From a virus (Duplodnaviria > Heunggongvirae > Uroviricota > Caudoviricetes), in the IMG/VR virus record IMGVR_UViG_2724679140_000005: DNA of 5,573 bases. One strand, written 5' to 3'. Positions 1 through 5,314 of the stretch are shown piece after piece. A model generated the notes under the pieces. The model was not told the DNA's origin and searched no databases. It saw only the letters and a list, made by a program, of their open reading frames with translations. Every line of letters starts with the position of its first letter. Within the stretch, counting starts at the first letter, position 1. Made by a program: the position numbers and the translations under genes.

Positions 1-174
1 ACAGTGCAGCAGCGCATCAGTGGCTTCCTTAAGCGTCACAGTGTCGCCATCACCCAGTCCTGCAATTTTTTCGTGCCTGACAAACGCCGCGCAAAGGTCG
101 TTAAACGCCCCTGCCCGCACATCCGCCAGGAAAGCGTTGGCAGCAGCCAAATCCTGGTAGTCAATCCCGCTCAC
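1..174 (-). CDS. Hypothetical protein, 5' part only (runs off the left edge); starts with GTG at 174-172, which overlaps the TGA stop of the upstream gene (GTGA)
   Basis: Minus-strand frame is open from 174 to position 1 (VSGIDYQDLAAANAFLADVRAGAF...). AGGAGG (complement of 183-188) lies 8 nt upstream of the GTG. Same orientation and coupling as the preceding gene. The plus-strand ORF 4..189 is the alternative reading. Confidence 0.4.
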   Translation of the reverse strand, partial: MSGIDYQDLAAANAFLADVRAGAFNDLCAAFVRHEKIAGLGDGDTVTLKEATDALLHC

Positions 175-593
175 AGTACCGCCTCCTGAAAATTACCCTG
201 ATAGAAAGCCAGTACACGCTGCATAACTTCGCTTTTACGACACTCAGTACAAATTATATTATGACGCCTGTCATAGCGGCGTATTTCTCCGTCTGGTAAT
301 GACCATATAATGTCCGGATCAACCGCAGATGGTTTCTTCAGCTTTGCCCTTGAGAGCTTTTTACGGGCATTTTGCCAGTCCTTACGCGCCTGTTCAGACG
401 GGAATAACCCGTAACCAGAGCTGTATACATCGCCACTGGCAACCAGCTCTCTGGTCAGAACGCTCATCAGATATCTTGTTGCCCCAGTTTTAGCTTCCAG
501 TTGTCGTAACGTCTCGCGCCCACTCTGGCGTACGAGTTCAACAACCAGCCCTTTAATTTTTTCCCGCTCTTCTTGTGTAAAAACTTTTGCCAC
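171..593 (-). CDS. Hypothetical phage protein (140 aa) immediately downstream of the replication initiator; function unknown, possibly replication-associated
   Basis: ORF-track ORF with GTG start at 593-591 preceded by AGGAGG (complement of 598-603, 4-nt spacer). No Walker A motif, so not an obvious DnaC-type loader. Stop overlaps the next start (GTGA at 171-174). Confidence 0.6.
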   Translation of the reverse strand: MAKVFTQEEREKIKGLVVELVRQSGRETLRQLEAKTGATRYLMSVLTRELVASGDVYSSGYGLFPSEQARKDWQNARKKLSRAKLKKPSAVDPDIIWSLPDGEIRRYDRRHNIICTECRKSEVMQRVLAFYQGNFQEAVL

Positions 594-636: not shown

Positions 637-1710
637 TCACCTGAAGCCCGGCGGAATTTCGTTATCCGGTTCAGAAATATGATTCACACAACGCTGGCTG
701 TTCGTGCCGCTTACCGGGAGCAACCAGGGGTTCTCAAAATTCCGGTCCGGTCCAAAAAACGTCGTCGCTCGCTGAACAAATTCCGTTCCCGTTTTCCCGG
801 TAGTCGCCAGGTATCTTGCGTAACGCCTCACGCCATCCAGCATGGCCTCTGGTGGCACCCCCTCGCGTAATCTGGCCTTCCAGGCACTGAAAGCGGATTT
901 CTTCGGGTTTGCTCCGGCACGCAACGGGTACTCCCGCCAGACCTGTTCGAACACATCCGGATAATCCACTCGTCCCACAGACTGCCCGGTGTTTTCCGGG
1001 ACTACCCGATCGGCTTCCCGCTGAATGGCGGAATCGGCTTCGGGCTGCTGCAGTTGGTGTGATTGCTCCGGCCTTGCGGTCATCACCTGCTGCACAGCGC
1101 CCGAATCGGCTTTCAGCGCATACGCTGAATCGGCTTCCGGTGTCGTGCCTGCTGGCTGACCAGGATTGACGGTCTGAACATCCCCTGCCTGGTTCGTGGC
1201 GTTTTTTACGCCATGGACCATAGTGTTTTGATCTTCTTGATCTGTATCTTTATCTGTATCTTTATCTGTCGTGACTCGTCGTGACATGTGCGTGACATTT
1301 CGTGACGCGCCGTGACAATCGCTATTTTGTTCCCGCTTTCTTTCCCTCTCTCGCTGCGCCCTCTTGCGCTCTGCAGGAGATTTTGCGGTTTGCGAAATAT
1401 TGCCGTTGTCCTCTTTCAGCACCTGGCGTTTTTCCCATCCAGTGATTAAATCACCATCAAGTACCCGCCCCTGCATCGTCTGCAAAATTGAATCAATTAC
1501 CTCTTCTGTCACGTCGAGCGCACTTGCCAAATCTTCTGTCGTGACATCAATGTGACCTCGCGTGACATTTCGTGACGCGCTCACCAGGAGGTGGATATAC
1601 ACTGCCATCACTGTTGCAATTGGCTGCCCTGACACCCTGGCAATTGTTCGCCACTTAGGGTCATTTGGCATGTCATGCCATAATCTGAGCCAGGCGTTAG
1701 CCATACTCAC
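637..1710 (-). CDS. Phage replication initiation protein (lambda O-like / replisome organiser), with iteron clusters inside its N-terminal coding half
   Basis: 357-aa ORF. The N-terminus (AWLRLWHDMPNDPKW...VMAVYIHLL) resembles replisome-organiser N-terminal domains as I recall them. Position directly after ydaS-ydaT matches Rac/Qin-type replication modules. The track start is GTG at 1710; ATG at 1704-1702 with AGAGGTG just upstream is the more likely initiation codon. Confidence 0.8.
   Translation of the reverse strand: MSMANAWLRLWHDMPNDPKWRTIARVSGQPIATVMAVYIHLLVSASRNVTRGHIDVTTEDLASALDVTEEVIDSILQTMQGRVLDGDLITGWEKRQVLKEDNGNISQTAKSPAERKRAQRERERKREQNSDCHGASRNVTHMSRRVTTDKDTDKDTDQEDQNTMVHGVKNATNQAGDVQTVNPGQPAGTTPEADSAYALKADSGAVQQVMTARPEQSHQLQQPEADSAIQREADRVVPENTGQSVGRVDYPDVFEQVWREYPLRAGANPKKSAFSAWKARLREGVPPEAMLDGVRRYARYLATTGKTGTEFVQRATTFFGPDRNFENPWLLPVSGTNSQRCVNHISEPDNEIPPGFR
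1241..1268. repeat. Tandem 12-bp repeat (tctgtatcttta x2 plus a partial copy), relatively AT-rich; encodes the DKDTDKDTD linker of the replication protein
   Basis: Direct reading: tctgtatcttta at 1241-1252 and 1253-1264, then tctgtc. Sits immediately next to the iteron cluster. Confidence 0.7.
1269..1320. repeat. Iteron-like cluster 1: five CGTGAC/GTGAC copies at ~10-11 bp spacing; candidate origin of replication inside the initiator gene
   Basis: GTGAC at about 1271, 1281, 1292, 1302 and 1312. Contains the 20-mer cgtgacatttcgtgacgcgc (1291-1310), which recurs exactly at 1561-1580. Confidence 0.6.
1541..1580. repeat. Iteron-like cluster 2: four GTGAC copies at ~10-11 bp spacing, including an exact 20-bp copy of the cluster-1 element
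   Basis: GTGAC at 1541, 1552, 1562 and 1572. 1561-1580 is identical to 1291-1310. Confidence 0.6.
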
Positions 1711-1775: not shown

Positions 1776-2201
1776 TCAATGTACTGCCACAGCATTTCCT
1801 GCCGGGCCACCACGGTTCATCTGATTGAAACCGGCGATTGCCACTGCGACAAAATCATCAGCGTCTCTCACCAGTCGCTCCCGCGTCTCCACCAGCTCCC
1901 GAAAATAAGCTGAACTGTGGCTGCGCATTCTGGCCACCAGCAAAGGTGGCATTGCCTTTTCGATCGCTGGTAACAACGCCTGAATTTTTTTAACCGCATC
2001 AGGAGTGTCTTTCTCCACCCAGCGGAAAATTTTCTGGGTATTGCGAGCCAGGGCTTCCGGATGGCTGTCGTCGTACAGCTCAGGAAACGTCATGCCCAGC
2101 TCGAAATAAGCCCTGGTTATCCTGGCTGCTGGCACTTTTTCACCGTCCGGATGCGCCCAGGCATTCATCGCCATGCGGATATGCTCATGCTTGATTTTCA
2201 T
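1776..2201 (-). CDS. ydaT: YdaT-like protein (CII-like regulator of Rac-type prophages)
   Basis: 141 aa beginning MKIKHEHI and ending ...VAVH, which resembles E. coli Rac YdaT as I recall it. Start ATG (2201-2199) overlaps the ydaS stop (ATGA). Confidence 0.8.
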   Translation of the reverse strand: MKIKHEHIRMAMNAWAHPDGEKVPAARITRAYFELGMTFPELYDDSHPEALARNTQKIFRWVEKDTPDAVKKIQALLPAIEKAMPPLLVARMRSHSSAYFRELVETRERLVRDADDFVAVAIAGFNQMNRGGPAGNAVAVH

Positions 2202-2500
2202 GAATCAACTCCATCAGATAAGCATGCACTACAATCACCTTCAGCATGAACTACATGCGTTTGCCCCAAACGAATGCCGCTCGCATACTCAGGCCAAATA
2301 AGTTCCCAATCATGGGGTCGTAGCTCCGCCCTACTTACTTGGCCTTCCGTAGCAGATTCGATCATAAGGGCGCGGGTTGGAGATATAGCTGCTCGTCCAG
2401 ACGCCATTTGCGATAAGTAAGATGGCGATACACCAAGTCTGGCCGCGAATTTCTTAGCATCACCAACCCTCAATGATTTAATAAACTCTTTTAATGTCAT
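2198..2500 (-). CDS. ydaS: Cro-like HTH regulator, YdaS family
   Basis: 100 aa with an HTH segment (AARLGVSPSYLSQMASGR) and an IESATEGQVSRAELRP motif resembling YdaS. GAGGAAGG RBS just upstream of the ATG at 2500. Divergent from the repressor gene. Confidence 0.8.
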   Translation of the reverse strand: MTLKEFIKSLRVGDAKKFAARLGVSPSYLSQMASGRAAISPTRALMIESATEGQVSRAELRPHDWELIWPEYASGIRLGQTHVVHAEGDCSACLSDGVDS

Positions 2501-2596
2501 ACCTTCCTCGATTTAGTGTTTTTTGCGAGTTTAGTGTTTAATAAACCATTAAGTCAAGTATTTGCTTGTTTAGTGATTACTAAAGATAATTACCAC
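2501..2596. promoter_or_regulatory. Divergent control region (OR/PR/PRM-like) between the cro-like ydaS and the CI-like repressor, with repeated operator-like motifs
   Basis: TTTAGTGTT at 2512-2520 and 2530-2538, TTTAGTGA at 2569-2576, and the near-palindrome GTTTAATAAAC at 2535-2545. AT-rich 96-bp gap between divergent starts. Confidence 0.55.
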
Positions 2597-2968
2597 ATGC
2601 AAAAAAAAGAAATTCGCCGTTTACGTCTCAAGGAGTGGTTTAAAGATAAAACTCTGCCACCCAAAGAGAAGAGCTACCTATCTCAACTAATGAGTGGGAG
2701 AGCCTCGTTTGGAGAAAAGGCTGCCAGAAGAATAGAGCAAACATACGGGATGCCGGATGGGTATCTAGATGTGGAATACGCAGAACAACCTGAGGTTTCT
2801 CCACCACATGCAGGGTTAACGTCTAATCAACTGGAATTATTGCAGATTTTTTCAGCCTTCCCTGAGGATGAGCAACGCCAGATAATCAGCGAGTTAAAGC
2901 AGAAAAAAGAATCAATGGAAGATCTCATAGCGAGATGGATTGCGGCGCAAAAATGCCGCCGCGCCTGA
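2597..2968 (+). CDS. paaR2: CI-like HTH repressor, likely PaaR2 (regulator of the paaR2-paaA2-parE2 module and probable prophage repressor)
   Basis: HTH region (KSYLSQLMSGRASFGEKAARRIEQTYGMPDGYLD) of lambda-repressor/XRE type. Divergent from the cro-like gene and directly upstream of paaA2-parE2. The track ORF starts at ATG 2516, but that N-terminal extension is hydrophobic and overlaps the operator repeats, so ATG 2597 (MQKKEIRR...) is preferred; start uncertain. Confidence 0.7.
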   Translation: MQKKEIRRLRLKEWFKDKTLPPKEKSYLSQLMSGRASFGEKAARRIEQTYGMPDGYLDVEYAEQPEVSPPHAGLTSNQLELLQIFSAFPEDEQRQIISELKQKKESMEDLIARWIAAQKCRRA

Positions 2969-2988
2969 GTTATAAAACCGGAGGAAAC

Positions 2989-3180
2989 ATGAATAGAGTC
3001 CTTTCACCAATGGTTTCTGAATTTGAAACCATTGAACAAGAAAACAGTTACAACGAATGGCTGCGTGCGAAAGTAGCAACAAGCCTTGCAGATCCGCGCC
3101 CAGCAATTCCCCATGACGAAGTTGAGCGCAGAATGGCAGAACGCTTTGCTAAAATGCGGAAGGAACGGAGCAAGCAGTAA
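2989..3180 (+). CDS. paaA2: PaaA2-type antitoxin (ParE-associated antitoxin)
   Basis: 63 aa (MNRVLSPMVSEFETIEQENSYNEWLRAK...KERSKQ) matching the PaaA2 antitoxin of E. coli O157 as I remember it; the paralog number is uncertain. GGAGG RBS 5 nt upstream of ATG 2989. The track's longer ORF from 2935 overlaps the repressor 3' end. Confidence 0.8.
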   Translation: MNRVLSPMVSEFETIEQENSYNEWLRAKVATSLADPRPAIPHDEVERRMAERFAKMRKERSKQ

Positions 3181-3181
3181 A

Positions 3182-3460
3182 ATGTTACCCGTGTTATGGC
3201 TTGAAAGTGCAGATACCGACCTAGATGATATAACTAGTTATATTGCTCGTTTCGACGTAGATGCGGCTGAACGCTTATGGCAGCGATTAAGGGGTTGTGT
3301 GCTGCCATTATCCGAACATCCGTATTTATACCCACCAAGCGACAGAGTACCTGGCTTGCGTGAGATTGTGGCCCACCCTAACTATATAATTCTATACCGC
3401 GTAACAACATCAAGCGTTGAAGTAGTAAACGTGATCCACGCAAGACGCCAGTTTCCCTAA
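3182..3460 (+). CDS. parE2: ParE-family toxin (ParE2-like, RelE/ParE superfamily)
   Basis: 92 aa from ATG 3182, one nt after the paaA2 stop. C-terminal signature typical of ParE (YIILYRV...VEVVNVIHARRQFP). The track ORF 3086..3460 is an upstream-extended version in the same frame. Confidence 0.8.
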   Translation: MLPVLWLESADTDLDDITSYIARFDVDAAERLWQRLRGCVLPLSEHPYLYPPSDRVPGLREIVAHPNYIILYRVTTSSVEVVNVIHARRQFP

Positions 3461-4304: not shown

Positions 4305-4712
4305 ATGGAATTTAAAGATTCACCAAAAGAAATCCAGACAATTGCTGCAACGGCTCTCGGTGATAGTCTGGTGAAAATTGACCCGGCATACACCAAAAAA
4401 GAAACCATCGATAATATGGTTCGTAATGTGCGCAATGCTTTTTCTGGGCTATATGGTCCTGATAATCAAAAGCAGGAAAGCGATGTTAATAAACGGGTAA
4501 TTTCTGTTTGCGTGAATGGCCATGTTCTTTCATCAATCAAAACAGAAACAGCGACAGTCTTCGATTGCCTTTGCATTGTACAGAGCCTTGTTGATGCCCT
4601 GTTTCGTTCAGTGAATTTAGAAAATGATGCAAATCTGCGAGGGCGCACAATAGCACATCCATATGCACATACTTTAGGCTCTGTGGATATCAAAGATCCC
4701 ACAAATCTTTAA
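4305..4712 (+). CDS. Hypothetical protein (135 aa) in an AT-rich insert; function unknown
   Basis: ORF with GAGG RBS ~8 nt upstream of the ATG. Local GC is clearly lower than in flanking prophage genes. I recognise no motifs. Confidence 0.55.
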   Translation: MEFKDSPKEIQTIAATALGDSLVKIDPAYTKKETIDNMVRNVRNAFSGLYGPDNQKQESDVNKRVISVCVNGHVLSSIKTETATVFDCLCIVQSLVDALFRSVNLENDANLRGRTIAHPYAHTLGSVDIKDPTNL

Positions 4713-4936: not shown

Positions 4937-5256
4937 GGTTGGTAATTAAGGAGTTCTCCACGGGTGAGGTGGAGTGCGTGCGCCGGACACGGGTGAACAT
5001 CCGGCACAGACAGTTTACTGAAAGGATATTTCCCTGAAAAGTCAGACCATAACGCGAAAGCGCACGGCGAGGTAGCTGGTTCATAGATAGCCTGTCGTTA
5101 AATTTTCGTCGACCGTGCGCTTCCGGTTGTGGCACTCCGCGAAATGGCGCGGCGGTAAGTATAGCGGGGTTATTCCTTCCCCGTTGAGGACACCGGGTTG
5201 TCAGGTTGACCATACGCTTAAGTGACAACCCCGCTGCAACGCCCTCTGTTATCAAT
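4937..5256 (+). other. GC-rich structured non-coding leader upstream of DicF (probable dicF precursor/processing region)
   Basis: Perfect inverted repeats: aagcgcacgg (5058-5067) with ccgtgcgctt (5113-5122); gggttgtca (5195-5203) with tgacaaccc (5223-5231); gccgga (4982-4987) with tccggc (5000-5005). The only ORF here (minus 4917..5255) is Arg-rich and implausible. Confidence 0.4.
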
Positions 5257-5314
5257 TTTCTGGTGACGTTTGGCGGTATCAGTTTTACTACGTGACTGCT
5301 CTGCCGCCCTTTTT
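5257..5314 (+). ncRNA. dicF: DicF small regulatory RNA (antisense inhibitor of ftsZ translation) with intrinsic terminator
   Basis: Sequence beginning tttctggtgacgtttggcggtatcag... and ending ...ctgctctgccgccc followed by ttttt matches DicF as I recall it. Located directly upstream of dicB, as in Qin. Confidence 0.75.

Follow-up and report, generated by a model that had tools for sequence, protein, structure and literature searches.

The question raised by this locus is whether a set of short, evenly spaced repeats inside a phage gene is a replication origin, written into the coding sequence of the protein which would act on it. The locus lies in a stretch of 5,573 nucleotides (the window) from the IMG/VR virus record IMGVR_UViG_2724679140_000005 (Caudoviricetes), which is the immunity and replication region of a lambdoid (Rac/Qin-like) prophage of E. 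coli. The gene encodes a replication initiator, and the initial annotation had placed a candidate origin within it. We now consider it likely, with good confidence, that region 1190-1580 is the replication origin of the phage, embedded in the gene of its own initiator. The support for this reading comes from comparison with related loci, namely from selection at the DNA level, from two repeat clusters which co-vary, and from a conserved AT-rich tract. With phased repeats, an adjoining AT-rich tract and maintenance at the DNA level the locus has the features by which it would be classed as an iteron-type origin within an initiator gene. The same layout is found in relatives from many bacterial groups, which looks like a widespread type of origin.

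Two arrays of short repeats and an AT-rich tract

The elements concerned are listed here from the start of the gene to its end, with residues numbered in the open reading frame (ORF) of 357 amino acids beginning at 1710.

637-1710, minus strand: replication initiator gene ('phage replisome organizer'), 357-amino-acid ORF; PHROG 3729 'replication initiation protein', E 7e-255
1426-1710, minus strand: coding region of the N-terminal winged-helix domain, residues 1-95
1540-1576, minus strand: iteron cluster A, four direct GTCAC(G) at 10/10/11-bp spacing; encodes the end of helix 31-47 and loop 48-57 (ASRNVTRGHIDVT)
1508-1513, plus strand: one iteron in inverted orientation, separated from the nearest edge of cluster A by 27 bp; encodes D-V-T
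1270-1316, minus strand: iteron cluster B, five direct GTCACG at 10/10/11/10-bp spacing; encodes a disordered inter-domain linker, residues 131-147
1290-1310 and 1560-1580, minus strand: two identical copies of a 21-bp two-iteron unit
1235-1269, no strand assigned: AT-rich tandem repeat, (GATAAAGATACA)n on the coding strand, peptide DKDTDKDTD; period 12 (2.9 copies) or 6
1190-1220, no strand assigned: palindrome just past the AT-rich tract, with arms of 13 bp and a loop of 5 nt, assessed by folding against shuffles
640-711, minus strand: C-terminal tail ...VNHISEPDNEIPPGFR (protein end ...SEPDNEIPPGFR), its last residues being nearly identical to the C-terminal end of DnaT, a primosomal protein of the host E. 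coli

On the coding strand the core GTCAC(G) occurs in nine direct copies spaced by 10-11 bp within the initiator gene. Read on the plus strand, CGTGAC starts at 1270, 1280, 1291, 1301 and 1311 and again at 1540, 1561 and 1571, with a TGTGAC at 1551. The window contains ten copies of CGTGAC against 2.2 expected, a number reached in none of 200 shuffles, which confirms the two clusters at helical-turn spacing described in the initial annotation. Nine of the 12 plus-strand copies of GTGAC fall within clusters A and B. Those at 5222-5296 were ruled out as related sites because two of the three lie in the small RNA DicF. In the 46-kb genome of phage Tritos at least three GTCAC within 60 bp are found only at clusters A and B. 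Both clusters resemble each other beyond the core, with 32 of 46 positions identical between 1265-1310 and 1535-1580 at an offset of 270. An exact 20-mer had been reported to occur twice; the repeat is real but one base pair longer, the true unit being 21 bp (1290-1310 equal to 1560-1580).

The AT-rich tract follows directly on cluster B, and the lowest GC content of the initiator gene, 27.5% at 1220-1259, overlaps it. A 12-bp AT-richer tandem repeat had been seen beside the array at 1270-1316, and this was found again with a span of 1235-1269, coinciding with the GC minimum. It is proposed that the tract serves as the DNA unwinding element. The palindrome at 1190-1220 folds as single-stranded DNA with -10.9 kcal/mol (z -5.3, equalled in 0 of 200 shuffles). 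Shigella phage 75/02 Stx, which has the same C-terminal module, retains this palindrome with a single compensatory base pair. The palindrome lies within the proposed origin region and may have a role there. No DnaA boxes were found near the repeats; the sole match with one mismatch, at 4682, is no more than expected by chance. Two other kinds of signal were considered and rejected. The single weak promoter-like site (9/12) within the gene is made by the iterons themselves, the sole terminator-like match is the palindrome on the antisense strand, and neither stands above shuffled sequence.

For comparison a set of 58 homologous loci was used, from one-genome-per-species contigs of gamma-, beta- and alpha-proteobacteria, Acidobacteria, and a metagenome-assembled genome of the Gemmataceae (planctomycete). 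The initiator family as a whole is large, a word-indexed search having yielded 912 protein clusters. As the repeats lie in coding sequence they had been said to impose the recurring peptide motifs RNVT/RVTT and DKDTD. The iteron motif is not bound to a single peptide, since the GTCAC core falls in all three codon phases on the coding strand and encodes different peptides in them, V-T, (A/M)S-R, and (C/G)-H. Codon usage was followed in 18 divergent loci with GTCACG iterons. Valines 49 and 56 are encoded by GTC in 18 of 18 (codon background 21%), threonine 50 by ACG in 18 of 18 and threonine 57 by ACG in 17 of 18 (background 24%), glycine 52 by GGT in 18 of 18 (background 17%), and serine 46 by TCA in 17 of 18 (background 16%). 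Neighbouring synonymous sites are free: arginine 51 is encoded by four codons (CGT, CGC, CGA, CGG), and glutamate 59 by GAA and GAG in a ratio of 9:9. The inverted iteron is conserved as well, its valine being GTG in all 16 GTCACG-group loci retaining the DVT peptide (GTG background 29%). Codon comparison thus shows that the repeats are selected as DNA and are no by-product of the protein sequence. An explanation solely by coding constraint at the protein level, which the initial annotation had named as one result that would count against an origin, is rejected by synonymous sites fixed within the motif and varying next to it.

The same layout in related initiator genes

Counted from the aspartate of the conserved DPKWR motif, which served as the zero point in the homologs, cluster A lies at about +86 to +117 and cluster B at about +310 to +390 in most loci, and up to +456 in a few. 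The repeated 6-mer depends on the lineage and is GTCACG, GTAACG, CGAACGC or GTGACG, the same one being used in both clusters of a locus. At least two copies of the same 6-mer are present in both regions in 41 of 52 loci versus 24 of 1040 control placements in the flanks, and at least three copies in both regions in 27 of 52 loci versus none of 1040 controls. Successive copies are 10 bp apart in 141 of 213 cases and 11 bp apart in 35. An exact identity of at least 15 nt, comprising two iterons and their spacer, is common to both clusters in 17 of 52 loci compared to one of 1080 control placements, so that the repeated unit first noticed as a 20-mer characterises the family in general. Two separated clusters had been called unusual, but this layout is conserved across the gene family. 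Helical phasing between the two clusters was considered as well and discarded, their distances of 231, 240, 250, 258-260, 269, and 350 bp being no constant multiple of 10.5 bp.

The repeats also lead back to the gene when only the DNA is searched. The pattern GTCACG-N4-GTCACG-N2-AGATAAAGATAAAG matched 30 viral contigs in IMG/VR, and all 29 evaluable matches lie in frame downstream of the DPKW/F-R/K motif of the family and have cluster A as well.

Cluster B is present in every lineage with recognisable repeats, including lineages without cluster A. Cluster B and the AT-rich tract only are found in L036, which has seven copies of CGAACGC, and in L037, L055, L027, L029 and L041. Cluster A can therefore not be essential in general. 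Because these lineages keep cluster B and the tract only, the two together probably form the core of the origin, with cluster A as an accessory array.

An AT-rich, purine-rich hexamer tandem directly after cluster B occurs in every iteron specificity group. In 41 related loci the AT content of the 40 nt past the last iteron of cluster B is 68%, compared with a locus mean of 44%, and purines make up 75% of their coding strand. The element (C/T)AGATAAAGATAAAG or CAGATACAGATA is kept across all iteron groups, even in loci with 60-65% GC overall, and tracts coding for DKDKD use GAT AAA even where the host loci have such a GC content. As the iteron differs by lineage and the AT-rich tract is common to the family, specificity resides in the iterons.

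Several single loci depart from this scheme or extend it. In the more distant homologs L042 and L057 region B has neither GTCAC-type repeats nor a GATAAA tract; ACTACGTA-type repeats are found instead, and the C-terminal domain after them seems to be a different one. An extra iteron occurs at +181, where the putative recognition helix is encoded. Its sequence is CGT CAC GTT (R-H-V) in the GTCACG locus L025 and CGT/AGT AAC GTT (...N-V) in the GTAACG loci L022 and L023, the change from C to A in the iteron thus causing a change from histidine to asparagine in the protein. In Pseudomonas aeruginosa phages (P0055 and the Pseudomonas phage matches H36-H41) two 'hypothetical proteins' are annotated at the initiator locus. 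Because the N-domain forms a separate ORF of about 160 amino acids which ends just past the AT-rich tract, the initiator gene seems to be split at the origin in these phages.

The initiator protein and the alternatives for its sites

The initiator gene is 98% identical in phages Tritos, Evi, and vB_EcoS-689R5, where it is annotated as replication protein O or replisome organizer. Its likely start is the ATG at 1704, which is preceded by a GAGG ribosome-binding site and is also the start annotated in phage Tritos. An AlphaFold2 model of the N-terminal 157 residues yielded a winged-helix domain with high confidence over residues 11-90, consisting of helices 31-47, 58-65, and 69-79 and a hairpin 80-90. 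Residues 130-157, encoded by cluster B and the AT-rich tract, are predicted to be disordered. According to the model both DNA elements would thus fall on a loop and a linker, where the protein is able to tolerate an imposed sequence.

In structural comparison the predicted fold of the N-domain is nearest to the DnaD N-terminal domain; Foldseek against the PDB gave nothing significant, and a PDB sequence search with an N-domain profile found nothing. Searched alone against Pfam at E <= 10 the N-domain matched only Phage_rep_org_N and HTH_Crp_2, both weakly. The match to Phage_rep_org_N (PF09681, SPP1 G38P) extends over profile positions 1-119 of 121 and reaches 16.2 bits, below the cut-off of 23.3 (E 0.011), and there are weak matches of the initiator to PHROG 'replisome organizer' families. 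A distant relationship of the N-domain to Phage_rep_org_N is plausible but not established. The loop encoded by cluster A was considered as a reader of the iterons and is disfavoured: L036 has CGAACGC iterons like other loci yet a different loop, and L037 has a loop of the CGAACGC-group type and iterons of the GTCAC type.

The C-terminal tail matches DnaT in the PDB chains 6aep (E 0.002), 2ru8, and 9zbt and in NCBIfam DnaT (E 0.007). No helicase-loader gene is present in the window or in the complete phage Tritos. In relatives the next gene downstream is lambda P-like (L005), DnaB (L018, L048), DnaC/IstB-like (L040, L023), or a primase-helicase (L056). C-terminal modules are exchanged immediately past the AT-rich tract. 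Phage 75/02 Stx has residues 160-357 in common with the protein studied here and an unrelated N-domain; many relatives have the N-domain in common and a DnaT-like single-stranded-DNA-binding C-domain. Such an exchange is as expected if origin and binding domain travel together.

Two further sets of repeats were noted in this context. A third repeat family in the window, at 1008-1137 in the minus-strand gene, consists of GAATCGGCTTC-like 11-mers in four copies (1008, 1031, 1103, 1127), all in one frame and encoding (P)EADS(A) in the middle part of the initiator, which is of low complexity; these repeats are also present in phage 75/02 Stx (L002 3369, 3392, 3467). The N-domain coding sequence of L002, the locus of this Shigella phage, has a repeat pair GGGGCTTC twice; the locus also has an inverted pair AGCCCCTT twice, just before a (CAGGAA)n tract which is followed by a palindrome as at 1190-1220 of the window (about 3903-3870, 3650-3620, and 3565-3535 cover the L002 elements). 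These elements hint at a two-site layout in a further initiator family, too.

Initiation at this locus could then proceed as follows. The winged-helix N-domain of the 357-amino-acid protein would bind the short direct GTCACG repeats, a step favoured by its predicted DNA-binding fold and by the exclusive association of the repeats with the initiator gene. Because the repeats are one helical turn apart the bound proteins would line up on one face of the DNA. Initiator filling the five copies of cluster B would stress and open the adjoining (GATAAA)n tract at 1235-1269, and the C-terminal domain with its DnaT-like tail would then bring in the host helicase machinery, presumably engaging the helicase-loading proteins of the host directly because no phage-encoded loader is present here. 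Cluster A and the inverted copy at 1508-1513, 270 bp upstream, would be bound by the same protein as an accessory site, which may aid loading of the core array by looping, limit transcription of the initiator gene, or both. DNA opening, helicase recruitment, the protein which binds the repeats, and the role of cluster A are what we infer in this scheme.

A more far-reaching version of this scheme can be put forward only tentatively. The locus would belong to a wide and undescribed origin family in which one protein fold reads a switchable 6-bp code (GTCACG, GTAACG, CGAACGC, GTGACG) at two arrays whose cooperation is required. From its place in the coding sequence of the DNA-binding domain the upstream array would contact the core by looping, trigger the opening of (GATAAA)n and throttle transcription of the initiator gene, thereby tying its supply to occupancy. 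If true, the natural specificity switches would represent a recognition code for the initiator fold.

A number of findings weigh against an origin at 1190-1580. Literature searches gave no paper showing binding, unwinding or origin activity for any member of the family, and a search of PLSDB for a mini-replicon relying on the initiator gene alone returned only large plasmids and misfiled chromosomes. The whole protein reaches the threshold of no Pfam family (E <= 0.01), including that of lambda O (Phage_rep_O). Cluster A is absent in some lineages, and putative recognition helix and wing are similar among groups with different iterons. Literature searches on the iteron, the AT-rich repeat and the initiator family found no description of such an origin, and origins are not discussed in surveys of Stx-phage replication modules.

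The alternative which survives best restricts the origin to cluster B and the AT-rich tract and makes cluster A a separate control element outside the initiation machinery, either a self-repressing operator or roadblock, or a 'handcuffing' array for copy control as incA of plasmid P1. The lineages named above which keep cluster B and the tract without cluster A fit this alternative. So does the position of cluster A about 130 nt into the gene, where bound protein would meet RNA polymerase, and no AT-rich tract adjoins it. However, cluster A has the same orientation and phasing as the core array, often with an identical two-iteron unit, and is kept in most lineages across four specificity switches. 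Likeness and retention suit cooperation as well as control, which sequence alone cannot separate, and a pure control element is regarded as a real but minority possibility. It is improbable, by a clear distance, that the arrays bind a different protein with a non-replicative role, such as control of early-operon transcription, a partition or packaging site, or a host nucleoid protein. Such a protein could be imagined because the putative recognition helix varies little between iteron groups. The arrays are, however, always inside the initiator family, as in 29 of the 29 DNA-only matches, and hold a fixed position in the gene though the neighbouring genes differ widely between hosts. The adjoining AT-rich tandem in the inter-domain linker has the position and layout of lambda ori (PMC6022878), and for the CI/Cro-type regulators of the window there is a separate intergenic control region near 2500-2600. 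That the repeats have no function as DNA and merely follow from recurring peptide motifs or from a duplication within the gene has a negligible chance of being right: conserved ASRNVT, VTT, and DKD peptides in the homologs and a 21-bp identity which could come from duplication or gene conversion would agree with it, but the motif stands in three reading frames and hence in different peptides, its internal synonymous positions are fixed (17-18 of 18 against a background of 16-24%) with flanking ones randomised, both clusters switch motif together with 10-bp phasing kept, and GAT AAA encodes DKDKD even in loci of 60-65% GC.

An origin embedded in the initiator gene would give a concrete origin, defined by sequence, to a large family of initiators from phages and prophages which carry no annotation beyond 'replisome organizer', with hosts spanning several phyla and including prophages of pathogenic E. 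coli and Shigella as well as phages of P. aeruginosa. The four co-varying iteron types would offer a natural series of specificity swaps in which DNA reading by a small winged-helix initiator could be studied. The gene would also be an example of overlapping codes, where a DNA signal and a protein sequence use the same bases and the signal is placed at a loop or linker. The signature may be of use for annotation of origins, for the design of compatible vectors, and for predicting replication incompatibility of co-resident prophages.

Surrounding genes and known systems

The remaining features of the window are the following.

171-593, minus strand: DUF977 gene
1776-2201, minus strand: cII/YdaT-like gene
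2198-2500, minus strand: Cro/YdaS-like gene
2516-3460, plus strand: paaR2/paaA2/parE2-like cassette
5258-5309, plus strand: DicF antisense small RNA (Rfam RF00039, 73.4 bits)

The cassette takes the repressor position of the immunity region and consists of a cI-like regulator (150 amino acids, weak DicA/PaaR2-type matches) followed by genes for a PaaA2 antitoxin and a ParE toxin. An identical stretch of 16 nt, CCTCCTGAAAATTACC (GGTAATTTTCAGGAGG on the coding strand), occurs at 182-197 in the end of the DUF977 gene and at 598-613 upstream of its start. This pair looks like a duplicated ribosome-binding region.

Among known systems phage lambda is the obvious one to compare, and the initial annotation had stated that the locus mirrors it. 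In lambda a palindrome follows the AT-rich tract too. The initiator gene of the window comes after cro- and cII-like genes as in a lambdoid immunity region, and a P-like gene is next door in relatives. As in lambda, the initiator gene contains the proposed origin, at the place which encodes the linker joining an N-terminal DNA-binding domain to a C-terminal domain for recruitment, and the repeat array is directly followed by an AT-rich tract; lambda ori is located in O between the DNA-binding and the P-binding domain and comprises four iterons and a 39-bp AT-rich region (PMC6022878). The lambda iterons are 18-19 bp long with internal dyad symmetry and bind an O dimer each (PMC6022878), whereas the cores found here are asymmetric and 6-7 bp long, with a period of 10-11 bp and a variable spacer of 4-5 nt. 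Unlike in lambda, a second array is located 270 bp upstream in the sequence coding for the DNA-binding domain, the window is without a P gene and its initiator ends in a DnaT-like tail, and the sequence of the initiator does not match the lambda O family of Pfam. The likeness to lambda therefore stands for layout and position and fails for the structure of the iterons, which are short and asymmetric, and for the protein family.

In Bacillus phage SPP1 the origin oriL lies within gene 38, and the sites of G38P, oriL and oriR, are tens of kilobases apart. The initiator studied here shares with G38P the sub-threshold match over the full length of Phage_rep_org_N, and two bound regions in SPP1 compare with two arrays here. 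As referred to in PMC5615212, which cites Missich et al. 1997 on this point, G38P binds its origin and a second, distant region. Unlike in SPP1, the present arrays are 270 bp apart in one gene, and hosts and partner proteins differ.

The combination of an O-like N-terminal domain with a DnaT C-terminal motif is also known from DopC, a domesticated O-like protein with an N-terminal helix-turn-helix encoded beside a P-like gene (PMC5509034). The dopC loci were reported to be without iteron-like sequences, and DopC was described in two bacterial orders, one of them the Cellvibrionales (PMC5509034). In contrast, the Gilvimarinus homologs L011 and L014, which belong to the Cellvibrionales, carry both iteron clusters; these may be DopC or prophage copies.

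Two separate arrays of the same repeat used by one initiator are found in satellite phage P4 (ori/crr), plasmid P1 (incC/incA), and plasmid R6K. One array in such systems adjoins the site of DNA opening, and the other one is an enhancer (P4 crr) or a control locus (P1 incA). Two separated arrays of one repeat are found in the initiator gene described here as well. Unlike here, the arrays of P4, P1, and R6K flank the initiator gene or lie outside it, their repeats are longer, and their initiators are unrelated. A universal need for both arrays in the present family is argued against by the lineages with cluster B only, in which core array and AT-rich tract would make up the origin.

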